Assembly: GCA_038208905.1 (NCBI GenBank)
Contig: JBBQYG010000083.1
Location: 1 to 16,726 of the forward strand
Direction: 5' to 3'
DNA: 16,726 bases
Source: Candidatus Sumerlaeia bacterium
GTDB taxonomy: Bacteria > Sumerlaeota > Sumerlaeia > SLMS01
Shown here: in pieces, positions 1 through 16,726 of the stretch
Layout of the letters: every line of letters begins with the position of its first letter
Numbering within the stretch: position 1 is the stretch's first letter
Position numbers and translations under genes: made by a program
Notes under the pieces: model-generated
The model's input: the letters and a program-made list of their open reading frames with translations, nothing else
The model's database searches: none
What the model was told of the DNA's origin: nothing

Positions 1-276
1 GAGCCGGAGGAGGCGCGGCGGCTGGCCCAGCGGCTCGAAATCCACTACACGCCCAAGCACGGAAGCTGGCTCAACATGGCGGAGATCGCGCTGCGCCTGC
101 TGGGCAGCCAATGCCTCTCGCGGCGATTCCCCGACCGCGAGGAGCTGAAGAAGCAGGTGGCCGCGTGGCAGGCGCGCAACGACGCCGCCCCGATGACGAC
201 GGACTGGCGCTTCACCACCCCCGACGCGCGCATCAAGCTCAAACGGCTCTACCCCAAGATCGAGGGCCCGGGTACT
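1..276 (+). mobile_element. 3' end of an IS630-family transposase (cut by the window edge, probably decayed)
   Basis: Frame 1 reads EPEEARRLAQRLEIHYTPKHGSWLNMAEI...CLSRRFPDREELKKQVAAWQ...DWRFTTPDARIKLKRLYPKIE, the typical C-terminus of IS630 DDE transposases (HYTPKHGSWLNMAE motif). The stop normally found shortly after LKRLYP is missing and the frame runs on to 438. GGGTACT at 269-275 resembles an element end. Confidence 0.85.
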
Positions 277-352
277 GCGTGGAACTGGCCGGATGGGACA
301 GTATGCATACTCCTATTATTCAGGGCCAATGCGGCGAAAAAAAGACGGTCGC

Positions 353-506
353 CACCGAGTTCACAGAGAGCACGGAGACAAAGAAGAGTGGGAGGAATCG
401 TCAGAGGAATCTGTGAAGCCCGTGGATGGTCGGTTTGATCCGCCTCCCCGACATCCGGGACTGGCCTACACGAAATCGAAATCTGCCAAATCCGCGCCAT
501 CCGCGG
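353..506. repeat. Cluster of three triple-9-mer (CRCRGAK-NN x3) intergenic repeats
   Basis: 353-377 (+) caccgag-tt-cacagag-ag-cacggag; 400-424 (-) cacgggc-tt-cacagat-tc-ctctgac; 481-505 (-) cgcggat-gg-cgcggat-tt-ggcagat. Confidence 0.65.
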
Positions 507-511
507 CCAAC

Positions 512-1621
512 TCAGTTGTTTTTCGGCGGCACCATCGACTCCCAATTCGGTTCCGTGGCGCGCTGGCGCAGGTAGTGATCCACGAGGACCAACGCCGTCA
601 TGGCCTCGACCATCGGCACGGCGCGCGGCAGGACGCAGGGATCGTGGCGGCCGCGGGGCATGAGTTCCACTTCCTCGCCGCGCTGGTTCACGGTCTGCTG
701 CTTCTGGAGGATCGTCGCCACGGGCTTGAACGCGACGCGGAGGGTGATCGGCTCTCCGTTGCTGATGCCGCCCTGGATGCCACCGCTGCGGTTGGTGCGC
801 GTGGCGATGTGGCCGTCGGGATTGTGGAAGAGGTCGTTGTGCTCGCTGCCGAGGAGATAGGTGCCGTCGAAGCCGCTCCCGCTCTCGAAGCCCTTCGCCG
901 CGGGGAGCGACAGCATCGCCTTCGCGAGGTCGGCCTCCAGCTTGTCGAACACCGGCTCGCCGAGGCCCGCGGGCACCCCGCGCGCCACGCAATCCACGGT
1001 GCCGCCGATGGAGTCTCCGTTGCTCTTCACTTCCTTGATGAAGGCGATCATGCGCTCGGCCACGGGGCCATCGGGGCAGCGGACGATATTGCTCTCCACC
1101 ATCGCCTGAGAAACGGTGGCCGGATCGACGGTCGCCTCGATGTCCTTCACGCGGGAAACCCACGCGACGATCTCCACGCCGAGGGCGGCGAGCACCTTCT
1201 TCGCCACGGCTCCGGCGGCAACGCGGCCAATGGTCTCCCGCGCGGAGGACCGCCCGCCGCCGCGCCAGTTACGGATGCCGTACTTGGCCTCGTAGGTGAA
1301 GTCGGCGTGGCTGGGGCGATAGACTTCCTTGAACGGCTCGTAGTCGCTGCCGCGCGCGTCCTGGTTCTTGATGATGATGCAGATCGGCGTGCCAAGGGTC
1401 CGGCCCTCGAAGACGCCGCTGACGATCTCCGCCGTGTCGGGTTCCGCGCGGGCCGTGGTGATCACGCTCTGGCCGGGGCGGCGGCGGTCGAGTTCGGCCT
1501 GAATCTCCTCCGCCGTGATCGGCACCCGAGGCGGGCACCCATCGATCACCACGCCGACGGCTCCGCCGTGGCTTTCACCAAAGGTGGCGATGCGAAAGAG
1601 CGTTCCGAATTGGGAGGACAT
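512..1621 (-). CDS. aroC: Chorismate synthase
   Basis: Motifs [48 protein letters not shown] and GRHDPCV. Start placed at MSSQFG (1621) by family N-terminus; the extension to 1834 in the ORF track is unlikely. Confidence 0.98.
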
Positions 1622-1837
1622 GGCGGGTTCCGGGGCCGGGGAATCGTGAGACGGGGGATTATTGGCCGGGGCGAGGTCGCGGCAAGGAGGAACGAACGGA
1701 GGGCCGCGGATTTCGCGGTTTGGGGCGGATGAAAAGAGGGAGGGGGACGTCAGCGTCCGAGGCCGTCGGATCATGCAGAACGTCCTGACTAAGGTTTTGA
1801 GGCCGTGCGGTTTCGTAGAAACCCTGGGAGGCAAACC

Positions 1838-2470
1838 ATGGACGCAGACTTTCGACTATCGCAAAGCCACAAAAGAGCAATCGGCCAAATGCCTGTCTCC
1901 GCGAGGAGGATGATTGCGGCAAGACATCTCTTCAGGCTGTCGTGCGATATGAGGTTCGATCTGGGTAAAGGCAACAAAGCGGCAGCACTGGCCCGTGCGA
2001 TTCTTGCCGGCTTACGGGCCGCTTGTCGCGAAACTACGGAACAGTTGAACCCGGCCCAGGAGAAGGTCGAGTTCATCGCATGGAATCACGAGCGGCCCCT
2101 CGATGAGATTCTCAAACTGGCAGCGACTACGGCCTGTTGCGAACTTCCCGATCGAATCGAGGAACTCGTCGGGGATGTGTGTGAAGACGCCGACGTTCTA
2201 GGGATACATAAAAGTCGCGACTTGGTTTCCGCCATCAAGACAGACGTGGACACCGTTGGCTCCCATCTACAGAACGGGTGCTTGGATATGAGCAAGGACC
2301 ATGAATATCTGTTCCATGGACTATGGTGGAACCCACCGCCGTCCTGGTATCATACAGCCACCCGGAACAGGCCAGTTTCGGTGCATTGCCCTCACGGCAC
2401 TCACACTCCGACGGACAGAGAATCAAGTCGCAGTCGAGTCTCTTGGACGGCATTCCTCCCGACTGGATAG
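1838..2470 (+). CDS. Hypothetical protein (about 210 aa), atypical codon usage
   Basis: ATG at 1838 is preceded by a good RBS (GGGAGG, 1826-1831). The N-terminal two-thirds look helical. More A/T-ending codons than in neighbouring genes. No recognisable family. Confidence 0.55.
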
Positions 2471-2543
2471 CCCGGCGCCCCGCGTCCCCTTCATCGCAAA
2501 TCCGCCTTTCATCCGCGCCACCCGCGGCAGGCCGTTCGTTCTC

Positions 2544-2576
2544 GCATTGACAGGTCCGGCGCCCGAGGCACCATGC
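2544..2576 (+). promoter_or_regulatory. Putative sigma70-type promoter, copy A (TTGACA-N16-CACCAT)
   Basis: Perfect TTGACA at 2547-2552. The whole GCATTGACAGG-N15-ACCATGC motif recurs at 3327-3359. Confidence 0.5.
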
Positions 2577-2644
2577 CCTCCGCGATGGCTTGGTCGGCCA
2601 TGGATATCCCCGTGTATAGACGCTCACCAACAGGCGCGGAATAG

Positions 2645-3301
2645 ATGACGGCCACATCAACCTTCGAAATTGTCATGGGAGTGGTCCTGCTCTCGCTTTG
2701 GGCGATTCTGCCACTCGCCGTTGGCGCCATGTCGGCGTTTTCCTTCCGTCGCGGCATCGAGTTCGTGTCGGAGCCCAGCAAACGCGCGACTCCGGTGACG
2801 GCGTGGTCGATGTTTGGTCCGCGCGTCCTTCGGAGGATGCGGTGGCCCTTGGTTGTGCTGGCGCTGGGCTGCGCGGCGTTGAGCACCGGCCCCGTGTGGA
2901 GCGGGGAGGAGACGACGTGGGCCAATTATATCCTGAGCGCCCTGATTTCCAGCATCCCGCTGAGCTATGTGCTGCTGCACACGGCGCTGCTCCTCCTCGT
3001 CGCACCGCGTATTCGTAGTGCGCTGGCGCTGGCGCTGGTGTGCTGTGGCGGTGCAGTGGTATGCATGCTTGCCGTGACGGCTGCCGGCTCGCTGCTGCCG
3101 CGATCGATGACGTATATCGACCTGATGGGCGACACCGGATGGGTGGGATTTTCACCGCCTCCGGGCACGCGGCCGCTCGGAGGCCTTGCGGGTTTCTCCA
3201 CCCTTCCGGGCTACCTCCTCATCTTTGCGGTGGTGGCTTGCGCCCTGGCCGCGTGGCGCGCGAGGCGCATGGGCGAGGCGTGGTTCCGGTTCCCGGAGTA
3301 G
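2645..3301 (+). CDS. Hypothetical integral membrane protein (about 5 TM helices)
   Basis: The 218-aa ORF has about five hydrophobic segments (IVMGVVLLSLWAILPLAVG; WPLVVLALGCAAL; YILSALISSIPLSYVLLHTALLLLVA; ALALALVCCGGAVVCMLAV; YLLIFAVVACALAAW) and fills the gap between its neighbours. Confidence 0.75.
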   Translation: MTATSTFEIVMGVVLLSLWAILPLAVGAMSAFSFRRGIEFVSEPSKRATPVTAWSMFGPRVLRRMRWPLVVLALGCAALSTGPVWSGEETTWANYILSALISSIPLSYVLLHTALLLLVAPRIRSALALALVCCGGAVVCMLAVTAAGSLLPRSMTYIDLMGDTGWVGFSPPPGTRPLGGLAGFSTLPGYLLIFAVVACALAAWRARRMGEAWFRFPE

Positions 3302-3326
3302 CTGACAAGCCCCCGGGCACCAGATT

Positions 3327-3359
3327 GCATTGACAGGGCGGGGGGCGCGGGGACCATGC
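3327..3359 (+). promoter_or_regulatory. Putative sigma70-type promoter, copy B (TTGACA-N16-GACCAT)
   Basis: Perfect TTGACA at 3330-3335, with the same flanks and spacing as 2544-2576. Confidence 0.5.
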
Positions 3360-3397
3360 GCCCCGCCGCGTCGCCTTGGACGCGGACGCCCCGAGGG

Positions 3398-4210
3398 ATG
3401 GTTCTTGCCGCGTTGTCCCAGCAGATCGAAACAGCCGCCGTCGCCCCCTGGTGGGAGAGCTATTTCTCCGCGCAGTATGGCGCCCTGTATCGCGGGCCGC
3501 TGGCGCCGGAGCTCTCCACGGAGGACGACGTGGAGACGGTGGCGCGCCTGTTTTCGGGGAGCGCGGCGCCGGTGCTGGATGTGGGCTGTGGATACGGGCG
3601 GCATTTGGACCGGGCCCGGCGCGCGGGAGTTCCGGCGGTTGGGTTGGAGTATTCCGCCGCGCTGCTGAACCTGCTGCCAAGGCGCGCCCGCAAGGCGGCG
3701 ATTCGGGGGGATATGCGGTCGCTTCCGTTTGCGGGCGGGGCGCTGGGCGGGGCGTGGATGCTCTTCAATACTTTTGGATATTTCGACGACGCGGAAAACG
3801 AGGGCGTGCTGGCCGGGCTGGCGCGCGTTCTGGCGCCGGGCGCCCGCCTGTTGATGGACGCCCCGGCGCGTTCCGCGATGGTGGCGACGGTGAGGGACGT
3901 TCCCTCGGTCATCCGCATGCAGGAGCGCGTCTCCATCCAGGAGAACTGGACCATCGACTCCACAGGCAAGCGCCTGAATTCCGCCGGGCAGTGGGTGCTG
4001 GGCGGGGTGGTGCAGACGTGGGCAATGTCGCTCAGGCTCTATACGCCGGCGGAACTGGAGCGGCTGCTGCGCCGCGCGGGCTTCGCCGGAGAGATCGAGA
4101 TTCGCCCGCTGGAGGAGTTGACGGCCCTTGGAACGGGCGATCCGGCGCCCAAGACCACCGACGCCCTTTGGCGCCGGACAACCAACATGGCGGTGCTGGC
4201 GGCGCGCTAG
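3398..4210 (+). CDS. Class I SAM-dependent methyltransferase
   Basis: Motif I VLDVGCGYGRH, then VGLEYS, IRGDMRSLPF, FNTFGYF, VLAPGARLLMD and LRLYTPAEL. The start is uncertain (3356, 3398 or slightly downstream). ATG 3356 lies inside the putative -10 element, so 3398 is preferred. Confidence 0.88.
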   Translation: MVLAALSQQIETAAVAPWWESYFSAQYGALYRGPLAPELSTEDDVETVARLFSGSAAPVLDVGCGYGRHLDRARRAGVPAVGLEYSAALLNLLPRRARKAAIRGDMRSLPFAGGALGGAWMLFNTFGYFDDAENEGVLAGLARVLAPGARLLMDAPARSAMVATVRDVPSVIRMQERVSIQENWTIDSTGKRLNSAGQWVLGGVVQTWAMSLRLYTPAELERLLRRAGFAGEIEIRPLEELTALGTGDPAPKTTDALWRRTTNMAVLAAR

Positions 4211-4321
4211 CCCTGTGATTTTTTCGCGAGCGGGCCACATCGGCATTGATTCGCGAAACCCCGCGGGGCGAAATCCCACCCGCACGACCCCAAGGTTTCC
4301 CCCAGGAGGATCCCCAGCACG

Positions 4322-6304
<1,983 letters not shown>

Positions 6305-6318
6305 GGCGCGCTCGCGCC

Positions 6319-7449
6319 TCAGCCGCCCTTGAACAAGTGGTCGGTCAGCCAGCCCTCGATCAGCCAATCCCGCCCGAATGCTTGAAGGGTGGGATTGGAC
6401 AGATCGAGGGCTTGCGACATTTCGGCATTCGGAGTCGGAAGCGCGATGGGACCGAGGGCGGCGGGCCCGCCGCCGGCAAGCCGCGGGGCGATCCACGCCT
6501 CCACGCGATCAACGAGGCCCGCCTCCAGAAACGATCCCGCCACCGCGCGGCCACCCTCCACCGTGAGGGACTGAATTTCGCGCGCGCGGAGATGAAACAT
6601 CACGTCGGCCAGCGACACGCCGCGCGGCCCGCGGGCGACGCGGAGGACCTCGGCGCCGGCCCGGCGGAGCGGCTCCTCCAGATCGACGCGAGCATCATCG
6701 CAGCAAATAACCAGAGCCGGGCTGTCGCCACCCTCGGTTAGAAACCGCGCATCGGGGGTGAGGCGCAGGGCGCTATCGAGAACGATGCGCACCAGAGGCG
6801 GACCCGCCGGATTGTCAACGCGCGCGGTCAGGCGAGCGTCATCGCGCAGCACGGTCTCGATGCCGGCCAGCACCGCGTCCTGGGTCGAGCGGCGGCGGTG
6901 GACCTCTGCGCGGGCCTCTTCCGCGGTGATCCATTTCGAGTCGCCGCCGGGCACCGCCGTGCAGCCGTCCAGCGTCATCGCCCACTTCAGCGTGACCAGC
7001 GGCCTGCCGAGCCCGTGAAAGGTGACGAAGGCGGGATTGATCAAGGCCGCCTCCACGCCGCGGAGCCCCACCTGCACGGACACGCCGGCCGCCTGCAGTA
7101 TCTCCACGCCGCCACGGGCCGCCGCATGGGGATCGCGCATCGCCACCACCGCTCGCGCGATGCCGGCGGCGATCAGGGCCTCGCTGCATGGGCCCGTGCG
7201 GCCTTGGTGATTGCAGGGTTCCAGCGTGACGTACATGGTGGCGCCGCGCACGTCGCGGCCCGCCTGGCTGGCATCGCGGAGCGCATCGATCTCCGCGTGG
7301 GGCTGACCGGCGCGGCGGTGAAAGCCTTCGCCGAGGATGTCGCCCCCAGCGGACACGATCACCGCGCCCACGCACGGATTCGGCCGCGTGAGTCCCTGCG
7401 CGCGCGCGGCCAGTTCCAGCGCGCGGCCCATCAGTTCATGGGGTGTCAT
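6319..7449 (-). CDS. ribD: Bifunctional diaminohydroxyphosphoribosylaminopyrimidine deaminase / 5-amino-6-(5-phosphoribosylamino)uracil reductase
   Basis: Deaminase motifs PNPCVGAV, HAE and YVTLEPCNHQGRTGPC. Reductase motifs LKWAMTLDG, SKWIT, VEGG and LVDRV. Confidence 0.97.
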   Translation of the reverse strand: MTPHELMGRALELAARAQGLTRPNPCVGAVIVSAGGDILGEGFHRRAGQPHAEIDALRDASQAGRDVRGATMYVTLEPCNHQGRTGPCSEALIAAGIARAVVAMRDPHAAARGGVEILQAAGVSVQVGLRGVEAALINPAFVTFHGLGRPLVTLKWAMTLDGCTAVPGGDSKWITAEEARAEVHRRRSTQDAVLAGIETVLRDDARLTARVDNPAGPPLVRIVLDSALRLTPDARFLTEGGDSPALVICCDDARVDLEEPLRRAGAEVLRVARGPRGVSLADVMFHLRAREIQSLTVEGGRAVAGSFLEAGLVDRVEAWIAPRLAGGGPAALGPIALPTPNAEMSQALDLSNPTLQAFGRDWLIEGWLTDHLFKGG

Positions 7450-7477
7450 CGGATGGAGGAGGGGAACAACGGCGATT

Positions 7478-7980
<503 letters not shown>

Positions 7981-8020
7981 GAAAAGAACGGATGACCGAC
8001 CGGGCCAAGGCGGCCCATCG

Positions 8021-8071
8021 CCTGCCCTTCCCTGTCGTTCACTGCCGTTTCCCTGCCTTTCCCTGCCGTTA
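8021..8071. repeat. Tandem array of five imperfect 10-mers (consensus CCTGCCGTTC)
   Basis: cctgcccttc / cctgtcgttc / actgccgttt / c / cctgcctttc / cctgccgtta; the last unit overlaps the Hsp70 stop codon. Confidence 0.8.
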
Positions 8072-9826
8072 CGCTCCCGCTTCGATCTCCGTCATCACGC
8101 GGAGCACATCGTCGATGATGTCGTTGATGGCTTCCTCGTCGCCGGCTTCGATGGCGTTGCGGAGCTGGGTGGTCTGGGTCTTGAGGTCGCGCGTCATCGG
8201 ATGGGCGCCGGAGACGGCCATGACGGACTCGGCGCGTTCGATGATATTGCGGGCCTCGTCGCTGCGGGATTCCTTGATGCGGTCCTGCAGCATCTTGGTC
8301 ACGCGCTCGCGGGCTTCCTTGATCATGCGGTGCTTCTCGGGATCGCTCAGGCGGCTGTCTGTGGCCTGGATGGTGACGGCCTTCTCGACGCCGGTGGCAA
8401 GGTCCTCCGCGCGCACCTCCAGGATGCGGTCCGGGTTGAGGCGGAACGTCACCTCGATGCGCGGCACGCCGCGGGGCGCGGGGGTGATGCCCTCGATGCG
8501 GAGCAGGTCGAGGAAGGTGTTCTCCGAGGCGACGTTGCTTTCGCCCTCGTAGATCGGGAAGCTTATGGCCTCTTGGAAGTCGCGCGTCGTGGTGAAGATG
8601 TCCTTGGCCTCGGTGGGATACGTCGAGTTGCGCTCGATGATCGTTCCCATCTGGTCGTTCTGCAGGCCAACGCCGAGGGAGAACGGCGTCATGTGGATGA
8701 TGACGGGGCGATCCTTCCCTTGGTAGCGCGTGGCGTAGCTATCAGCGAGGTCGCCCTCCAGCGGGGCGAGCACGATGGTCTGCACCGCGGCGCCCATCGC
8801 CACGACTTCCTCGGGGGAAATGTCGCGGTGGGCGTTGCGGCCGCTGAACTCGCGGACGATGCGCTGCACCATCGGGATGCGCGTGGAACCACCGACCAGG
8901 AGCACATTGGTGATCTCGCCGACGGGCATCCCGGCGTCCTTGAGGGCGGCATCCATGGGGCCGCGCGTCGCCTGGACCAGGTCGCCGATCAGTTCCTCGA
9001 ACTTCTCCCGCGTCAGCACGTGGTCCAAGGTCATGGGACCCTTCTGCGTCATGGTGATCGCCTCGACGAGGATGTGGGTCTCCTTGAGTTCGGAGAGCTC
9101 GATCTTCGCCTCTTCCGCCGCTTCGCGCAGGCGCTGCTTGGCGATTGGGTCCTCGGTCAGGTCCACGCCAGTCTCGTTCTTGAAGACACTTATCAGGTAT
9201 TCGACGATGCGCCTGTCGAAGTCGTCGCCGCCCAGGCTGGTGTTGCCGCTGATGGCGCGGACCTGGAAGACGCCGGAAAGAATCTCGATGATGCTGACGT
9301 CGAACGTGCCGCCGCCAAGATCGTACACCAGGAGGATCTGGTCCTCGTCCTTGTCGAGGCCATAGGCGAGCGCCGCGGCGGTGGGCTCGTCGATGACGCG
9401 GCGGACGGTGAGGCCGGCGATCTCCCCGGCGTCCTTGGTGGCCGCGCGCTGGGTCTCGGTAAAGTAGGCGGGCACGGTGATCACCGCCTGGGTGATCTCC
9501 TCGCCAAAGTAGTCCTGAGTATCCTGCCGCAGCTTCTGCAGGATCATCGCGCTGATTTCCTGGGGCGTGAACTCCTTCCCCTCGATGCGGACGCGGTGGT
9601 TGGTGCCCATGTGGCGCTTGATGCTGAAGACCGTGCGGCCCACGTTCATGATGGCGCCGCGCTTGGCCTTCTTGCCGACGAGGATATCACCGGACTTGGT
9701 GAAGCCGACGACGGATGGAGTGAGCCGCTCCCCCAGGCTGTTGGGAACGATGAAGGGGCCGTTCTTCTCCATGACGGAGACCACCGAGTTGGTGGTGCCG
9801 AGGTCGATTCCGATGATCCTGCCCAT
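8069..9826 (-). CDS. Hsp70/DnaK-family chaperone, divergent paralogue (585 aa)
   Basis: GIDLGTTNS, TPSVV, SIKR, TVPAYF, EPTAAALAYG, YDLGGGTFDVS, LGGDDFD, AKIELS, LVGGSTRIP, TPFSLG and APRGVPRIEVTF. RBS AGGAGA at 9837-9842 (-). Linker and substrate-binding residues are non-canonical, so it is probably not the housekeeping dnaK. Confidence 0.96.
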   Translation of the reverse strand: MGRIIGIDLGTTNSVVSVMEKNGPFIVPNSLGERLTPSVVGFTKSGDILVGKKAKRGAIMNVGRTVFSIKRHMGTNHRVRIEGKEFTPQEISAMILQKLRQDTQDYFGEEITQAVITVPAYFTETQRAATKDAGEIAGLTVRRVIDEPTAAALAYGLDKDEDQILLVYDLGGGTFDVSIIEILSGVFQVRAISGNTSLGGDDFDRRIVEYLISVFKNETGVDLTEDPIAKQRLREAAEEAKIELSELKETHILVEAITMTQKGPMTLDHVLTREKFEELIGDLVQATRGPMDAALKDAGMPVGEITNVLLVGGSTRIPMVQRIVREFSGRNAHRDISPEEVVAMGAAVQTIVLAPLEGDLADSYATRYQGKDRPVIIHMTPFSLGVGLQNDQMGTIIERNSTYPTEAKDIFTTTRDFQEAISFPIYEGESNVASENTFLDLLRIEGITPAPRGVPRIEVTFRLNPDRILEVRAEDLATGVEKAVTIQATDSRLSDPEKHRMIKEARERVTKMLQDRIKESRSDEARNIIERAESVMAVSGAHPMTRDLKTQTTQLRNAIEAGDEEAINDIIDDVLRVMTEIEAGA

Positions 9827-9847
9827 GGCTCGTGAGTCTCCTGTAGG

Positions 9848-10414
9848 TTATTGAGCGACGACCACTTTGGCGTCCCTCACCAATTTGCCGCGAAAGAAAT
9901 ATCCGCGTTGCTGCTCCCGGACAATGGTATTCGGCGCGAATTCGCCGCGCGGCACCAGCGCCGTGACATCGTGCAACTCAAAGTCCACCTCGCAGCCCAC
10001 CGACGTGATCGGCACAAGGCCGATGCCCTCCAGCGTCCTGAGCAGGCGCACCCGGAGCGCGGAAACTGTCGCCATCCAATTGGCGAACGTCTCGTCCTTC
10101 TGGGCCACGCTCTCTCCAAACTCCACGATCCGGTCCAAGGCGTCAAGAGAGGGTAGCATCGATTTGGCGATCTGGCGGATTTCCGCCTCGGAGGAGCCGG
10201 TCGCCGCGCCCGGGGCGACCCGGGGGGCATCCGCCGCCCGCCGCCGCTCCGCCGCCGCCTTCAACGAATCCACCTGGCGATTCAACTCCGCCAGCACCGC
10301 CGTCACCGCGCCCGCAAGGTCCACCTCCGGCGCCAACTCCGTCTGCACCGGCAGCCGCTCCGCCGTGGGATCGAAGGTTCCCTTCCACATCCAGCGGTTC
10401 AGGGCGGCAAGCAT
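9848..10414 (-). CDS. GrpE-like nucleotide exchange factor (divergent)
   Basis: MLPSLDALDR (cf. LLPVLDNLER), long helices, then GCEVDFELHDV and IVREQQRGYFFRGKLVRDAKVVV (cf. GExFDPxxHEA and QKGY..RxLRPAxVxV). Lies 21 bp upstream of the Hsp70 gene. Confidence 0.9.
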   Translation of the reverse strand: MLAALNRWMWKGTFDPTAERLPVQTELAPEVDLAGAVTAVLAELNRQVDSLKAAAERRRAADAPRVAPGAATGSSEAEIRQIAKSMLPSLDALDRIVEFGESVAQKDETFANWMATVSALRVRLLRTLEGIGLVPITSVGCEVDFELHDVTALVPRGEFAPNTIVREQQRGYFFRGKLVRDAKVVVAQ

Positions 10415-10424
10415 TGGCGGGGCC

Positions 10425-11864
10425 TTATCGCTTCATTCTCAGGTCGGTGATCGCCTTCTTGGCCACCTGGTTCTTGGGATCGAGCGTCAGCACCTGCTGG
10501 TACTCCGCCAGTGCGCTGCGCACGTCGCCCTTCATGTCATAGGTGGCGGCGATCTCCAGGTGCACCTCGGCGCTTTTGGGCATCAGCGCCAGGAGCTGCT
10601 TGAAGTGAACCAGCGCCTGGGTGAAGATGCCCTTGGACCGGAAAGCCTTCCCCATGTTCAGGTGCGCCTTCACCAGGTGCTCCCGCGTGGTGGGGTTCTT
10701 GGGATCGATGGACATGCTGCGTTTCCAGCAGTTGAACGCCTCGTCCTTTTGCCCGCTGTTGAGCATCGCCCAGCCCAGCAGGTTCCACACGTCGGTATTC
10801 TTGGGGTGCTTGCGGGTGAGGATTTGCAGTTCCTCGCGGGCCTCGGCGAAGAGCTTCTCCTCCATCAACTTGTTGCAGAGCTGGAAGTGGGCGTCGAAGT
10901 CGTCGGGGTTTAGCTTCACGATGTCCCGGTTGCGTTCGATGCTGGCCGAGGCCGTTGGCGGCGCGGGCGGGCCGGAGGCGGCGAGCTTGGGCACCGCCGT
11001 GGAGGATCCACCCGTCGGGCGGGGCGCCGGCGGACCGAGCTTGGGCACCGCCGCGGAGGAGGCCACCGGCACGGGCTGGGACACGCGCACCTGGGCCGCC
11101 GAGCGGCGCGGCGCCGAGGCGATCAGGTCGGAGATGTCCTCCTGGTGGCCAAGCGCCTCCGTCAGCAGAAACCGCATGTAGTCGTTCGTGGGGTCGCGCT
11201 CGAGCTGGCGCTTCCACCGGGCCATGACTTCCTCCCAGTAGCGCACAGTGCGCACGGAATCGCGGCAGCGCTCTGAAAGGATCGCAAGGTTGTGGATGAT
11301 CTCCGTGCTGTCGGGGTCCATCTTGAGCGCCCGCTCCAGCAGCTCGATCGCCTCCTCGTTCAGGCCATGCAGCGCATAGGAAATCCCGAGGTTCGAGCAA
11401 GCGAGTTCGAGGTTGTGGCGCGCCCGCGCGTGGGAGGGCTCGTGCTCGAGCACCTCGGACCAATCGCGGATCGCCTCGCCCAGCAGCTTGCGCGTGACCA
11501 GATAGTGGGCCCGGGAAAACAGCACGCGCAGCAGGGCGGACTTCAGGTCGTCGTTCATGATGTGCGCCAGATAATCCCGACGCACCTTGTTGACCATCTC
11601 GTCGTCGGGCGGTTCCGGATCGCGCCACTTCTCGTCCTCCTGAAACAGGTACTCGCCCTGGGCCATGTTGAAGGAAAGGATGTCTTCCTTGGCGCGCGAC
11701 TTCACCTGCCGCAGGCGGTCATAGGCCTGCTGGATGACCATGAAGCGCTCTGTATGCTTTTCCGGGTCGTACTTCTTGACCAGATTGACGTAGGCCGCCT
11801 TGACCTCTTTCTCCGTGGAACTCTTGGGGATTCCAAGGATGGCGTAGGCGCTGTTCTCGATCAT
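10425..11864 (-). CDS. J-domain (HPD replaced by DPE) plus two TPR blocks separated by a Pro/Ala/Ser-rich linker (479 aa)
   Basis: MIENSAYAILGIPKSSTEKEVKAAYVNLVKKYDPEK...FMVIQQAYDRL aligns without gaps to the DnaJ N-terminus. TPR-like units include EAIELLERALKMDPDS, EAFNCWKRSMSIDPKN and ALAEYQQVLTLDPKN. Start placed at 11864 by J-domain register. Confidence 0.9.
   Translation of the reverse strand: MIENSAYAILGIPKSSTEKEVKAAYVNLVKKYDPEKHTERFMVIQQAYDRLRQVKSRAKEDILSFNMAQGEYLFQEDEKWRDPEPPDDEMVNKVRRDYLAHIMNDDLKSALLRVLFSRAHYLVTRKLLGEAIRDWSEVLEHEPSHARARHNLELACSNLGISYALHGLNEEAIELLERALKMDPDSTEIIHNLAILSERCRDSVRTVRYWEEVMARWKRQLERDPTNDYMRFLLTEALGHQEDISDLIASAPRRSAAQVRVSQPVPVASSAAVPKLGPPAPRPTGGSSTAVPKLAASGPPAPPTASASIERNRDIVKLNPDDFDAHFQLCNKLMEEKLFAEAREELQILTRKHPKNTDVWNLLGWAMLNSGQKDEAFNCWKRSMSIDPKNPTTREHLVKAHLNMGKAFRSKGIFTQALVHFKQLLALMPKSAEVHLEIAATYDMKGDVRSALAEYQQVLTLDPKNQVAKKAITDLRMKR
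10982..11060. repeat. 25-bp intragenic direct repeat (period 54 bp) encoding SS(A/T)AVPKL twice
   Basis: cgagcttgggcaccgccgtggagga (10982-11006) and cgagcttgggcaccgccgcggagga (11036-11060), one mismatch. Confidence 0.9.
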
Positions 11865-12047
11865 GGAATCTATCCGGTCTTCTGGTCGCTGGCTGGGGGA
11901 GGCGCCGAAGCCCTCCCGATGGACCCGGGCTGGGGCCCCGATAGGGAGAACGGGGGCGAGGCCAGCATGACTCCGTCCCCTCTGGTGTCGAGTAAAGGCC
12001 ACCCTCCGCACAGAGCAAGGAAAAACCCGGTGGCAGGGAACGGCGCG

Positions 12048-13046
12048 TCACACCGCCAGGCGCGCCGCCAGCTTCACCGCCGCGATGATGCTGCCCAGGC
12101 TCGCCGTCCCCGTTCCGGCGATGTCATAGGCGGTGCCGTGGTCGGGGCTGGTGCGCGGGAACGGAAGTCCCATCGTAACGTTCACGCCGTCCTCGAAGCT
12201 GACCATCTTGAAGGGGATCAGCCCCTGATCGTGGTACATGCAAAGGTGCGCCTGATACTTGCGCACTGACACGGGCGTAAAGGCCGAGTCGGGCACCACG
12301 GGGCCCTCCGCGTCGTAGCCTTCCTCGCGCAGGAGCCGCACCGCGGGCTCGATGATCTCGTCGTCCTCCGTGCCGAGAAGGCCGCTCTCACCCGAGTGGG
12401 GGTTCAGGCCCAGCACGGCGATCCGGGGCTTCTGGCCGCGAAGGCGCTCCACCGCGTCGGCAAGCAGCTCCCCCACGGCAACGATGCGCGCGGTATCCAG
12501 CGAGCCGGGGACCGACGCCAGCGACTGGTGAATCGTGACCAGGCCGACGGCGAGGCGGTCGCTGTACATCATCATGGCGTAGTTGGGAGAGGCGGTGGCC
12601 TCCCCGAAGATCTCCGTGTGGCCGGGCGCCTCGATACCGCCCAGGCTAAGCGCCAGCTTGTTGATCGGCGCCGTGGTCACGCCCTGGATCGCGCCGGACC
12701 ACGCAAGGCGGATCGACGCGCGTATATACTCGTAGCAGGCGCGCCCGCCCTCCGCGCAGGGGAGCGCCATCGTCACGGGCTCCGCAAGGAATCCGCAGTC
12801 CACCATCTCGATGGCGTCCCCGGGCACCGGCGTGGAGGAGAGCGCGTCGGCCACGGTGGCCTCTGTATAGACGGCGAATTCGCGATCGCAGCGCGCCACC
12901 GGGCGGATGGCCTCCAGCACCGATCTGTCACCGATCAGCACCGGGCGGCACACGGTGCGGATCTCCCGCAGCCCAGCCACGCGCAGGGCGATCTCCGGCC
13001 CGATGCCGGCGGGGTCTCCGATGGTGATGCCGATGGTAGGTAGCAT
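12048..13046 (-). CDS. pdxA: 4-hydroxythreonine-4-phosphate dehydrogenase (PdxA/PdxA2 family)
   Basis: GDPAGIGPE, TAPINK, GHTE, VTIH, LNPHSGE, MYHDQGLIPFK and RTSPDHGTAYDIAG. Start placed at MLPTIG (13046). Confidence 0.95.
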   Translation of the reverse strand: MLPTIGITIGDPAGIGPEIALRVAGLREIRTVCRPVLIGDRSVLEAIRPVARCDREFAVYTEATVADALSSTPVPGDAIEMVDCGFLAEPVTMALPCAEGGRACYEYIRASIRLAWSGAIQGVTTAPINKLALSLGGIEAPGHTEIFGEATASPNYAMMMYSDRLAVGLVTIHQSLASVPGSLDTARIVAVGELLADAVERLRGQKPRIAVLGLNPHSGESGLLGTEDDEIIEPAVRLLREEGYDAEGPVVPDSAFTPVSVRKYQAHLCMYHDQGLIPFKMVSFEDGVNVTMGLPFPRTSPDHGTAYDIAGTGTASLGSIIAAVKLAARLAV

Positions 13047-13208
13047 GGGCGGGGCCCTTTTTTTGGAGATGTGGGAGTTATGGAACACTCACGGCGAGAG
13101 GTTGAATCATCGCAGAGGGCGCCCCGGCCCGGCAAGCCAAGCCCCGAAACAGGCTCCAATCGGTCGTTGTGATCAAAAAGAGCCACACGGGCCGTTGTTG
13201 GACCGACT

Positions 13209-13217
13209 TGATAAAAT
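13209..13217 (+). promoter_or_regulatory. Putative extended -10 promoter element for glnA (TG-A-TAAAAT)
   Basis: TGATAAAAT matches TGnTAnnnT within an AT-rich patch of the pdxA/glnA divergent region. No good -35 element. Confidence 0.45.
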
Positions 13218-13383
13218 TTAACCAGCACGTGGCCCTTTCTTTCCTGCTGATTTCGCTGGAGCACCCGCAAAGCGGTTCTTCTAATGCGCCCCACGTTTGG
13301 GTGCCCGCCGGGGCGCCCGGCGCCGCCGGAGGGGTTTTCGTCTCCCTCGGCCCACTTCCACCCAAAGGAGAGGCTTCGCGAAG

Positions 13384-14811
13384 ATGAAACCTTCCGAGGT
13401 ATTCCAGCTCATCAAGTCGAAGAATGTCCGCTTCGTCGATTTCAAGTTCACCGACATGCCGGGCCTTCAGCAGCACTTCACCTGTCCCGTCGCCGATGTT
13501 GACGAGAGCATCTTCACCGAAGGCCACGGCTTCGACGGTTCCTCCATCCGCGGATGGCGCGCCATCAACGAATCCGACATGCTCCTGATCCCCGATCCCG
13601 CCACGGCGATGATCGATCCCTTCTGCGATATTCCCACGCTCTCCATGGTGGGCAACGTCGTCGATCCCCTCACCCGCGAGAAGTACAACCGCGACCCCCG
13701 CAACATCGCCCTCAACGCCGAGGCCTACCTCAAGAGCACCGGCCTGGGCGACGTCTCCTTCTTCGGCCCCGAGCTTGAGTTCTTCCTCTTCTCCGAAGTC
13801 CGCTACGAGTCCGGCCCCTCCGGCAGCTTCTACGTCGTTGACAGCCCCGAGGCCGCCTGGAACTCCGGCAAGGACGACCGCGAGGACTATGGCCGCCCCA
13901 ACCTGGGCGGCAAGATCCGCCACAAGGAAGGCTACTTCCCCCTTCCCCCCACCGACACCCTGCAGAACGTCCGCAACGAGATGGTCGATGTGATGGAGAA
14001 GTGCGGCATCCACGTGGAGACGCACCACCACGAGGTCGCCACCGCCGGGCAGTGCGAGATCGACATGCGCTTCGACGAGCTGCTCAAGATGGCCGACAAG
14101 TCGCTCCTCTACAAGTACATCATCAAGAACGTCGCGGTGAAGCACAACCTCTCCGCCTGCTTCATGCCCAAGCCCATCTATGGCGACAACGGCTCCGGCA
14201 TGCACACCCACATCTCCATCTGGAAGGGTGGCAAGAACCTGATGGCCGGAAACGGCTATGCGGGCCTTTCGGAGTTCGCCCTGCACTTCATCGGCGGCCT
14301 GCTCAAGCACGCCCCCGCGCTGCTCGCCCTCACCAACCCGACGACCAACAGCTACAAGCGCCTGGTCCCCGGCTACGAGGCCCCCGTCAACCTCGCCTAC
14401 TCCCAGCGCAACCGCTCCGCCGCGATCCGCATCCCCATGTACAGCACCAGCGAGAAGTCCAAGCGCGTCGAGTTCCGCTGCCCCGATCCCCTTGCCAACC
14501 CCTACCTCGCCTTCCCCGCCCTCCTCATGGCCGGGCTGGACGGCGTCCAGAACAAGATCGACCCGGGCAAGCCCCTCGACAAGAACATCTACGACCTCCC
14601 CGCCGAGGAAGCCAAGCGCGTCCCCAAGGCGCCGGGCTCCCTGGAAGCCGCCCTCGACGCCCTCGAAGCCGACCACGAGTTCCTCTGCAAGGGCGACGTG
14701 TTCACCCACGACCTCATCGAGTCCTACATCGAGTTCAAGCGTAAGGACGAAGTGGACGCCATGCGCCTCCGCCCCCACCCCCACGAGTTCGTCCTGTACT
14801 ACAACCAGTAA
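13384..14811 (+). CDS. glnA: Glutamine synthetase type I (GSI-beta, adenylylation Tyr motif present)
   Basis: [82 protein letters not shown] and [21 protein letters not shown] at 13364-13373 supports ATG 13384. Confidence 0.99.
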
Positions 14812-14838
14812 CCCGCCACACAGACCGCATGATGGAAC

Positions 14839-14876
14839 GCGCCCCCCGGAGAAGGAATCCGGGGGGCGCTGTTATT
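14839..14876 (+). terminator. Intrinsic terminator-like hairpin after glnA
   Basis: Perfect 12-bp stem GCGCCCCCCGGA / TCCGGGGGGCGC with a 7-nt loop, followed by TGTTATT; lies between convergent genes. Confidence 0.75.
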
Positions 14877-14934
14877 GTAGCACGGCGCGTCTCGCCCGTG
14901 CTCCGCGAATGACCGCGGCGGCGACGGCCCCTAC
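14877..14934. repeat. GTAG-type REP-like element with an inverted partner ending in CTAC
   Basis: GTAG at 14877 overlaps the hairpin AGCACGG-N10-CCGTGCT (14879-14902). A GC-rich segment ends in CTAC at 14931-14934. Confidence 0.5.
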
Positions 14935-14958
14935 CTTCGGGGCCGCCCATCCCGCCGT

Positions 14959-16656
14959 TCAACCCGACCCATCGCCGCCGCGCCGCTCGCGAATCAGGGC
15001 CTGGGCCCGATCCACATTCCCTTGCGCGATGCCGCGATAGTATTCCAACCCCGGCTGGGTGAACACCTCCAGCGCCGCGCGATAGGCCGCCACCGCCTCC
15101 TCCAGCCTCGCCGTCCCGCTCTCCCGCCCGCCGAGGGTCGCGAGGGCGTTGCCGAGGTTGTTCTGCGTCATCGCCCAGTCGAGGGGAACGCGCTCGCGAG
15201 GATACTCCTTCAAGATGCTATTCAGAAGGGCGATCTCTTCCTCGAGCGCTTCGTTGTCCCCCTTATCTACTCCTTGGTTGTGCAATGCGTCCGCCGCGCG
15301 TTGGCGATAAGTTCGGGCCGCTGTGGGGTCATGCTCGGACATCAGCTTGAAGGCCTCGCCGAAGAGATTGGCTGCCTCCCGGTATGCCCATCGGAGGAGC
15401 GCCGCCTCGGCGCGCGTGGCGCGGATATCGGCAGCATCTCGATCTTGGCGATTAAGCTCCTCGCGCAGCAGCAGCCGCGACTCGTCCACCTTCTGTTGAA
15501 CACCAATCAGGAGTCGTTCCGCCTCAACAAGTCGCCCTTCCGTGAGCGCCGCTCGGGCGAGCCGCAACACCTCGCCAGCCTCGCGGGAAAAGAGTCCCAA
15601 CCTCGCAAGCCGCTCTTCTAGTACTTTGTATCGCGTGGCGAATTCCGTGAGTTTCTCCGGCCATTTCTCGAAGGACACCTCATCACCCTTCAACTGGACA
15701 AGACAGGCACCGATGGCCCCTTTCGCGATTCCCAGTTCTAGGCTAAGTTTCTCGTTTCTCGCTGTTACGTCTGGGAGAATTGCGAGTATGAGGCCCAGCT
15801 TTCCCTTGATATCCCCGATTCCGGACTCCATCCGGTCGAGCTGCGGTTTCATATCACTGATACTGCGCTCCAGAAGTAGAATCCCGGAGTCCAGTCCCGC
15901 TAGATGACACTTCAACTCCTTGCGTGTGACACCAACGGCGTGGAGGAGTACGTGTTGGCCTTGCTCCGCCTCGCCCTGAATCTGACGCAGCACCGCAAGC
16001 GTGGTCTTCTGTCCGCCCAGAATCTCCTCCGTCGCGCTAAGCTGGAAGGCGCGCATCTTCACTTCGTCGTGCTCGAGGACCTGCTTGAAGTCATGCACGA
16101 ACCAGCGGGGAAGTTCGCGGACGACATAGTCCCGGATGGAGTCGCGGTAGGAGAGATAGCCGAGTCCGGCCTCGTCGATGATGGCATCGGCGAGTTCCCG
16201 CCATGCTTCCTCCGAGAAGATGGCATCGCCCTCTCGCGCGGCGACGAGGAGGAGCGGCAGGTGGGGCTCCGAGGCAGCGGCGAACCCAGTGAGTTCCGCC
16301 GCTGCGATGCGCTTCCACACGCGCATCGCGGCCGGGCCGAGGCTATCGAGCTTGGCCGCCTCGTCGGGAAACTTTTCCTTCAGCCGCATCGTGAAGAAGA
16401 GCTCCATCGACTCGCCGACGGCGGCGACCAGATCCTCGCTGCGGAGCACGTTCTCTGCCTGGGGCGAGCGAGTGATCCGCTTATCGATCTCGCTGGCGAT
16501 GAGGTTGCCCGCGATACCTGCGCCGGCGCGAATGACCTCAAGAGCGAGTGCCGCACCACTCGCGACGCCCGCAGGCGTAGCGATCAAGGCCCCAATGGCA
16601 ATGCTCGCCCCCATGGTGACCAGTGATCCGGCGCAGATGCAGAAGTTTCGATTCAT
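14959..16656 (-). CDS. Hypothetical protein: unknown N-terminal domain, coiled coil and C-terminal TPR region of the RERVPLDWAMTQNNLG type (565 aa)
   Basis: The C-terminal GDNEALEE..RERVPLDWAMTQNNLGNALATLGGRESGTARLEEAVAAYRAALE is a recognisable TPR-type repeat. The central region is heptad-rich and the N-terminus is Gly/Ala-rich and hydrophobic. Alternative start at 16614. Confidence 0.85.
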   Translation of the reverse strand: MNRNFCICAGSLVTMGASIAIGALIATPAGVASGAALALEVIRAGAGIAGNLIASEIDKRITRSPQAENVLRSEDLVAAVGESMELFFTMRLKEKFPDEAAKLDSLGPAAMRVWKRIAAAELTGFAAASEPHLPLLLVAAREGDAIFSEEAWRELADAIIDEAGLGYLSYRDSIRDYVVRELPRWFVHDFKQVLEHDEVKMRAFQLSATEEILGGQKTTLAVLRQIQGEAEQGQHVLLHAVGVTRKELKCHLAGLDSGILLLERSISDMKPQLDRMESGIGDIKGKLGLILAILPDVTARNEKLSLELGIAKGAIGACLVQLKGDEVSFEKWPEKLTEFATRYKVLEERLARLGLFSREAGEVLRLARAALTEGRLVEAERLLIGVQQKVDESRLLLREELNRQDRDAADIRATRAEAALLRWAYREAANLFGEAFKLMSEHDPTAARTYRQRAADALHNQGVDKGDNEALEEEIALLNSILKEYPRERVPLDWAMTQNNLGNALATLGGRESGTARLEEAVAAYRAALEVFTQPGLEYYRGIAQGNVDRAQALIRERRGGDGSG

Positions 16657-16726
16657 CGATACCGTCCCGCCCAGTCTGGTTCCAACTCAGGATGGGCCCA
16701 CCCTATCGTGCGGCGTGGGATTCGCA

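Follow-up and report, generated by a model that had tools for sequence, protein, structure and literature searches.

We examined a 16,726-nucleotide stretch of DNA (the window) from Candidatus Sumerlaeia bacterium (assembly GCA_038208905.1, contig JBBQYG010000083.1, positions 1 to 16,726; contig C83 of a 4.2-Mb genome in 301 contigs) and found an operon for a divergent Hsp70 chaperone system. Three adjoining minus-strand genes encode, in this order, a J-domain co-chaperone with tetratricopeptide repeats (J-TPR), a GrpE-like nucleotide exchange factor and, as the operon's final gene, an Hsp70. The J-TPR protein (10425..11864; 479 amino acids (aa) counted from the Met at 11864 that is common to its orthologs) carries a J domain at its N-terminus (Pfam DnaJ, PF00226, 44 bits against a cut-off of 27.8), followed by two TPR blocks that match Pfam TPR families. 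The GrpE-like protein (9848..10414, 188 aa) matched Pfam GrpE (PF01025) at 69.7 bits against a cut-off of 25.8 and fell far under all NCBIfam GrpE equivalog cut-offs (best 46.3 versus 212); the genome has two further GrpE genes. The Hsp70 (8069..9826, 585 aa) matched Pfam HSP70 (PF00012) with an E-value of 4.6e-176 over residues 4-581, spanning the nucleotide-binding domain (NBD), the linker, the beta part of the substrate-binding domain (SBD-beta) and the lid. It is not a DnaK equivalog: its scores lie under the NCBIfam cut-offs (PRK00290, 643.8 versus 648; TIGR02350, 622.3 versus 822.55), and our trees place it apart from the DnaK of its own genome. All three operon proteins are divergent against NCBI curated models. 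The window J-TPR is also about 50 residues longer than most of its orthologs (479 versus 426-430 aa), and the extra length is a Pro/Ala/Ser-rich spacer that separates its two TPR blocks.

We aligned the window Hsp70 to solved DnaK structures and to E. coli K-12 DnaK, and the alignment confirms the substitutions that a first-pass annotation of this DNA had listed. Key positions are numbered here as in E. coli DnaK for Hsp70 and as in DnaJ for the J domain; all features lie on the minus strand. The conserved linker motif DVLLLD, which ends in Asp393, is replaced by RPVIIH, followed by a gap and Met where DnaK has Val; the substitution D393H falls on His378 of the window protein (codon CAC, 8693..8695), within the strand VIIHM (residues 375-379, 8690..8704). 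IINEP around position 170 reads VIDEP (N170D; Asp146, 9389..9391), FEV around 217 reads FQV (E217Q; Gln188, 9263..9265) and TFDIDADG from 475 onwards reads TFRLNPDR (D477R; Arg462, 8441..8443). The retention of K70, R151, K155, R167, E171, T199, Q378 and P419, also claimed at first pass, holds in the alignment, and R167 corresponds to Arg143 of the window protein. Two features had gone unmentioned: D481 is kept, and a 19-residue insert (residues 354-372, 8711..8767), visible in both the alignment and the consensus, stands immediately N-terminal of the linker. Throughout the phylum the insert keeps its sequence well (approximately LAPLxGxxExTLAxRYGxEKP), although the model predicts disorder for it (pLDDT 46-55). 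It looks like a linear binding motif, and that it might bind to the TPR domain is speculation. The substrate pocket is altered as well, with changes that are conserved among orthologs (M404Q/E, A429T, V436I, I438F), which points to a possible special client range.

The altered residues are constant features of an Hsp70 found nearly throughout the phylum. We searched 61 Sumerlaeota genomes, in which orthologs (at least 63% identity) were separated from paralogs (at most 48%) by a clean gap, and detected the ortholog in 59; the exceptions were G003 and G058, the latter 75% complete. Two genomes, G046 and G049, hold a second Hsp70 copy that stands without GrpE or J genes. In an alignment of 61 ortholog sequences (the window and 60 loci from 56 other genomes), position 393 was His in every sequence and position 170 was Asp in all 58 that cover the column. 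Position 217 was Gln in 41 sequences, Arg in 16, Lys in two and His in one, and never Glu, while position 477 was Arg in 36, Lys in 21, and Thr and His in one each. The catalytic and allosteric residues are just as stable: K70, E171, D194, T199, D201, R151 and R167 were each present in 58/58 orthologs, D481 in 59/59, P419 in 61/61, Q378 in 57/61 and K155 in 56/58 (one Gln, one Arg), and the window Hsp70 has the complete set from K70 to D481. Five full Hsp70 paralogs are encoded in the window's own genome, and the other four keep D393, N170 and E217.

Beyond the phylum, we searched 1.84 billion cluster representatives exhaustively and without a profile, and the orthogroup came back as essentially a single 50%-identity cluster. 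Only three of the best 150 representatives at 50% identity carried His393, and all three belong to this orthogroup; the automatic alignment of these 150 put residue 393 in the wrong place in one or more sequences that have the insert, among them P0187, which was re-aligned by eye and with MAFFT. Nor were the same Hsp70 substitutions common beside J partners with the canonical HPD motif (His33-Pro34-Asp35) among the 150 nearest representatives, a pattern that would have spoken against an idea of the first-pass annotation, namely that changes in the Hsp70 and the J domain complement each other. A rival explanation is a degenerating paralog with random substitutions, and the Hsp70 score just under the DnaK equivalog cut-offs speaks for it. 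We consider decay or chance exceedingly improbable: frames were intact in all loci read, identity among orthologs runs from 63 to 90% across the phylum, and neither the catalytic residues nor the substituted ones vary. These conservation data contradict decay and confirm that the substitutions are real and more than chance.

The partner J domain departs from the canonical form just as consistently. In the window it occupies approximately residues 1-65 of the J-TPR protein (11670..11864), and its loop D33-P34-E35-K36-H37 (11754..11768) replaces H-P-D-R-N; the surrounding sequence reads KKYDPEKH where DnaJ has KYHPDRN, so that HPD has become DPE, and V26, N27 and M48 stand in place of K26, R27 and K48. 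There are seven J domains in the genome, and the other six keep HPD. The canonical pair of the same genome, DnaK on contig C109 and DnaJ on contig C26, retains all of the steering residues, as well as the His33, that are changed in the operon pair. A J-TPR gene with a readable N-terminus lies upstream in 47 of the 61 loci, and a GrpE relative was found in 51 open reading frames (ORFs) of these loci. Eight loci have more than 3 kb of upstream sequence and no J-TPR gene there. Genome-wide, we recovered an unlinked J-TPR gene reading DPE in six genomes (G007, G024, G011, G040, G009 and G026; the Hsp70 loci tied to the relocated genes are L088, L090, L092, L094, L095 and L097). Within two families of Sumerlaeota, J-TPR has moved off the GrpE-Hsp70 pair with DPE kept. 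The linked and unlinked genes, together with those of the deep-branching G003, which reads DNE, and G002, which reads NPE, gave 55 partner J domains. Position 33 was Asp in 49 of them, Asn in three, Pro in two, Thr in one and His in none, while Glu35 was present in 55/55 and Pro34 in 54/55. The 47 linked J domains all have K22, an aromatic residue at 25 (Tyr, Phe or Trp) and Phe or Tyr at 47.

An Hsp70 with H393 and D170 and a J-TPR protein with Glu35 and no His33 co-occur in every genome that could be read for both, including those in which the genes are unlinked. An alternative possibility is a swap within the J loop itself, via its last residue: of the 47 linked J domains, 46 carry His37, and the remaining one, L083, lacks Asp33 as well and is the only one paired with an Hsp70 that has Arg394. 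The deepest lineage, G002, has Asn at both 33 and 37 alongside His393. Forty-seven proteins came up in a word-based search started with the J region; those named by their source are labelled TPR, DnaJ-domain or hypothetical, and the organism names are Sumerlaeota or Sumerlaeia, one Poribacteria, or plain 'bacterium'. In G003, the only genome of another class, the J-TPR gene with DNE (L121/L125, contig C206) is followed directly by a frame whose beginning resembles this Hsp70, with no GrpE gene between them. That frame includes masked bases, runs into unrelated sequence at its end and may reflect a misassembly or a broken gene.

Predicted structures are consistent with two proteins of normal fold. 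We built AlphaFold2 models without templates from our own alignments. The Hsp70 model (pLDDT 88.9, pTM 0.85) matched the ATP-type docked structures 4b9q, 7ko2 and 5nro with TM scores of 0.88-0.89, as opposed to 0.55 for the ADP-state structure 2kho, and in it VIIHM is a beta-strand that occupies the docked position of the ATP state. As a prediction only, the two-domain fold and access to the ATP-docked state would thus be retained. The J-domain model has four helices (residues 6-10, 18-31, 38-52 and 54-63) with YDPEKH in the loop between helices II and III. Its Foldseek matches are J domains, including the DnaK-bound 5nro_B (root-mean-square deviation 1.9 Å over 62 columns), at weak E-values of 1e-3 to 1e-2. 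The PF00226 match and the four modelled helices together indicate that the J fold is retained. We likewise predict ATPase activity and a normal architecture for the window Hsp70, with the catalytic residues and the allosteric residues R167, D481, Q378 and P419 intact.

Both partners differ at the linker and the site where J domains are known to dock on DnaK. In the solved complex of DnaK with a J domain, the backbone carbonyl of L391 accepts a hydrogen bond from H33, P34 lies against P419, D35 contacts R167 and Q378, and K48 forms a salt bridge with D477 (PMC8215388). Within DnaK itself R167 pairs with D393 and D481, and D35 of the J domain competes for R167 (PMC7289447). E217 is contacted by Y25 and K26, D208 by R27 and T215 by M30 (PMC13012618; bioRxiv 2020.03.25.008359). 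D393 is kept in cytosolic Hsp70, Grp78, Hsp110 and Grp170 (PMC6843406), and approximately 99% of J domains carry HPD (PMC13580251). The first-pass annotation had proposed two compensatory pairings, H33D with D393H and the loss of K26 and R27 with E217Q and D477R. Fixed, lineage-specific changes do occur on both partners at the J-docking and linker site, and always together, which is the part of the H33D/D393H proposal that stands. As a direct exchange it fares less well, since H33 contacts the L391 backbone and D393 contacts R167, and since J33 varies beside an invariant His393. The second pairing finds no support in the form proposed: the published partner of D477 is K48, those of E217 are Y25 and K26, and that of R27 is D208. 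Because the published partners differ, the proposed pairs are not swaps of known contacts. Most orthologs have Glu at J position 27 and Gln or Arg at Hsp70 position 217, and the two do not pair consistently; what had been described as a charge reversal at D477R is the loss of a salt bridge, as K48 has changed to Met and not to an acid.

A direct polarity swap, in which the linker His393 donates a hydrogen bond to Asp or Asn33 of the J domain in place of the bond from J His33 to the linker backbone, is how that first proposal would work. His393 and a residue 33 other than His always occur together, and 52 of the 55 J domains have Asp or Asn33, both possible hydrogen-bond acceptors. In the published structures H33, D35, R167, L391 and D393 form a cluster in which H33 and D35 face the same way, so the side chains could plausibly meet. 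The known partners of H33 and D393 are nevertheless not each other, Pro33 (two cases) and Thr33 (one case) are accompanied by an unchanged His393, and so is Asn33 in the deep-branching G002. We therefore regard such a swap as rather unlikely. The fuller form of the idea is held just as tentatively: the His would effectively have moved to the Hsp70 linker, with His393 bonding Asp or Asn33 and Glu35 still acting on R167, giving a functional pair that lacks His33 and an orthogonal chaperone circuit beyond cross-activation by canonical DnaJ and DnaK.

The order in which the substitutions arose can be read from a sister family. His393 sequences are monophyletic with P0187 as their sister at a support of 99 (SH-aLRT or SH-like) in three trees (FastTree on 81 rows, quick IQ-TREE with LG+G4 on 33 rows and quick IQ-TREE with a site-mixture model); the support values come from FastTree and quick IQ-TREE only, and the branch of P0187 is long. 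Using P0187 as the query, we obtained a family of 18 sequences (P0187 and P0338-P0354), one of them named Candidatus Brocadiae. All 18 have Asp170, a long pre-linker insert and Glu217, and all have Ala, Thr or Met at 167, Pro393-Arg394 and Ser at 481. The genome contigs, searched with P0187, yielded only relatives of approximately 40% identity, and a metagenome search yielded one 1.7-kb sister-family contig on which a GrpE-like ORF lies just upstream and a J gene would not fit. Because N170D and the insert are common to a family that has Pro393, they are older than the replacement of D393. The lineages then diverged: the sister lineage dismantled the R167 triad, and the window lineage kept R167 and D481 and fixed His393.

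This order bears on a third suggestion of the first-pass annotation, that N170D compensates for the linker change from within the Hsp70. It is weakened as a response to D393H, since N170D came earlier, and favoured at least as a first step. Taken further, the changes may be internal compensation only, with Asp170 replacing Asp393 as the partner of R167 and freeing position 393, and with the J changes reflecting separate specificity or drift. Asp170 in 58/58 members of the His393 family and 18/18 of the Pro393 family, joined by the well-supported sister relation, is what this account would predict. A known E. coli system agrees with it: DjlB and DjlC of K-12 read HPE, and their partner HscC keeps N170, D393 and E217; therefore Glu35 alone does not demand changes in the Hsp70. 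Internal compensation has a real chance of being correct, though we think it improbable as the whole explanation, as Asp170 also occurs in the sister family that lacks R167 and so is not simply the partner of R167. It also leaves unexplained both the invariance of His393 across the phylum and the absence of His33 from 55/55 partners.

We lean, with modest confidence, towards a private, co-adapted Hsp70 system in which both partners have been rewired at the R167-centred J switch. The polar surroundings of R167 appear to have been rebuilt, with His in place of the linker Asp and Asp170 one helical turn from R167, and the acidic J-docking positions 217 and 477 are now neutral or basic. Both partners retain the residues through which the J signal passes (Hsp70: R167, Q378, P419 and D481; J domain: P34, the acid at 35, Y25, F47 and K22), and those that steer docking or make the His contact are changed (E217 and D477 lost from the Hsp70; K26, R27, K48 and H33 lost from the J domain). 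Kept transmitters and changed steering residues, and not simple charge swaps, are the pattern that would be expected of a private, insulated pair. From the sequences, their conservation and co-occurrence, and the folds we infer docking, ATPase stimulation and insulation. The J domain would still dock at the junction of NBD, linker and SBD, and Glu35 would fire the R167 switch. The role of His33 would be supplied from the Hsp70 side, by His393 and perhaps Asp170, or would have become dispensable. The pair may be insulated from the four other Hsp70s and the six HPD J-proteins of the same cell, and its dedicated exchange factor, its changed substrate pocket and a TPR domain acting in targeting may serve a special set of clients.

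Several observations weigh against a rewired and working J switch. Residue 33 of the J domain is not fixed, as Asn, Pro and Thr occur there. In DnaK-D393A, allosteric coupling is impaired in both directions (PMC4595643), HPD variants other than HPE are described as abolishing ATPase stimulation in all systems tested (PMC13254874), and DnaK derivatives with modified linkers are presumed to be devoid of J activation (PMC13580251). The sister family, having lost R167, D393 and D481, may indicate that the window lineage is itself drifting away from J control. The key states were fixed on one ancient branch, so their co-occurrence has no independent replicate, and within the clade the variation at 217, 477, J19 and J27 amounts to only about three independent changes. 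Statistical covariation is unusable as a test because all of the changes trace to one ancient event.

The same observations lend some weight to a different role for the J protein, as a non-stimulating 'type IV' partner whose DPE domain tethers or regulates the Hsp70 as Pam16 does, with the Hsp70 cycling without J-triggered hydrolysis. HPE, natural in DjlB and DjlC, is the only HPD variant tolerated so far according to reviews (PMC10410713; PMC13254874); other variants are termed 'type IV' and presumed inactive, and the DKE motif of Pam16 inhibits and does not stimulate (PMC13254874). The uncoupling of DnaK by D393A and a sister family that does without R167, D393 and D481 altogether fit such a role too. 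We find it doubtful, given that the J-signal residues are strictly conserved on both partners, which is unexpected for an unused switch, and that the presence of a GrpE of its own speaks for a regulated nucleotide cycle. The likeness to Pam16/Tim16 and other 'type IV' J proteins lies in a J fold that has lost its His (DKE in yeast Pam16, DPE here). Pam16, unlike the window protein, has lost the Pro and binds another J domain (PMC13254874), whereas the window J domain keeps Pro34 and Glu35 and shares an operon with a cognate Hsp70 and GrpE.

By analogy, the private system that we favour may work like known dedicated Hsp70/J pairs. As in the HscC-DjlB/DjlC system of E. coli, a specialised, divergent Hsp70 has its own class C J protein with a non-HPD motif, and both Hsp70s have a short form of the NBD without the loop that bears D208 and D211. 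The window system is not of the HscC/DjlC type: DjlB and DjlC keep His33, the operon J protein has DPE and is a TPR protein, its Hsp70 has D170 and H393, and it has a GrpE gene in the operon, while HscC is described as being without GrpE (PMC8215388). HscA-HscB and the fungal Ssq1-Jac1/Hsc20 are also dedicated pairs, with interfaces that diverged jointly, by co-evolution, from the DnaK-DnaJ pattern and with J docking at the same junction, but their J proteins keep HPD and their Hsp70s keep the linker Asp (D429 in Ssq1; PMC7289447). Bacterial 'DnaK derivates' are likewise extra Hsp70 paralogs with linkers departing from DVLLLD; they often lack parts of the SBD and are presumed to be J-independent (PMC13580251), in contrast to the full architecture, R167 switch and cognate J and GrpE genes of the window Hsp70. 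J plus TPR (DnaJ-TPR class C) is among the 12 commonest J-protein architectures (PMC10410713), and the published text consulted offered no DPE member with a matched Hsp70. Our literature searches returned no publication describing this Hsp70/J system and none pairing 'Sumerlaeota' with 'DnaK'. In the usage of the reviews the system falls under both 'DnaK derivates' and 'type IV J proteins'. None of the known systems compared here unites its four features: the J motif is intact except for its His, the matching Hsp70 has exchanged the near-universal linker Asp, a GrpE belongs to the system, and conservation extends through the phylum.

Elsewhere in the window, approximately 620 bases (7450-8068) separate the Hsp70 stop from the start of ribD (6319-7449, minus strand). 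We detected no FMN riboswitch in this interval and no Rfam family in the whole window at gathering score, and a scan for promoters and terminators found nothing exceeding shuffled controls. An ORF at 7446-8042 had no Pfam match, and neither, at an E-value of 0.01, did the frames at 293-1732 (plus strand, 479 aa), 1805-2470 (plus, 221 aa), 2645-3301 (plus, 218 aa) and 14959-16656 (minus, 565 aa), the last of which has a C-terminus that by eye is helical and TPR-like. Long minus-strand frames at 3152-6496 and 13078-14784 are shadow frames of a GC-rich genome with low-complexity translations, and lie opposite genes for a speA-like arginine decarboxylase (4322-6304, plus) and glnA (13297-14811, plus), respectively. 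Outside the window, one of the five Hsp70 paralogs of the window's own genome (G000), a 1255-aa frame on contig C43 (20986-24753, minus strand), joins an Hsp70 (NBD, linker and SBD-beta), a long low-complexity region, TPR-like repeats and a C-terminal Ser/Thr protein kinase, the kinase domain having been recognised by eye from its motifs. Matching frames of 1150-1330 aa in other genomes suggest that this Hsp70-kinase fusion is conserved in the phylum.

Whether natural deviations from HPD are accidents or have been selected is 'enigmatic' according to a 2026 review (PMC13254874). The deviation described here clearly belongs among the selected ones, because it is fixed across the phylum with Pro34 and Glu35 kept. 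The operon therefore offers a natural test system for what His33 does and for whether the other partner can supply its role, with a cognate Hsp70 that is changed at the residues around the J switch and encoded in a simple three-gene operon. Should the insulation hold, the two proteins would in addition make up a ready-made orthogonal Hsp70 circuit.

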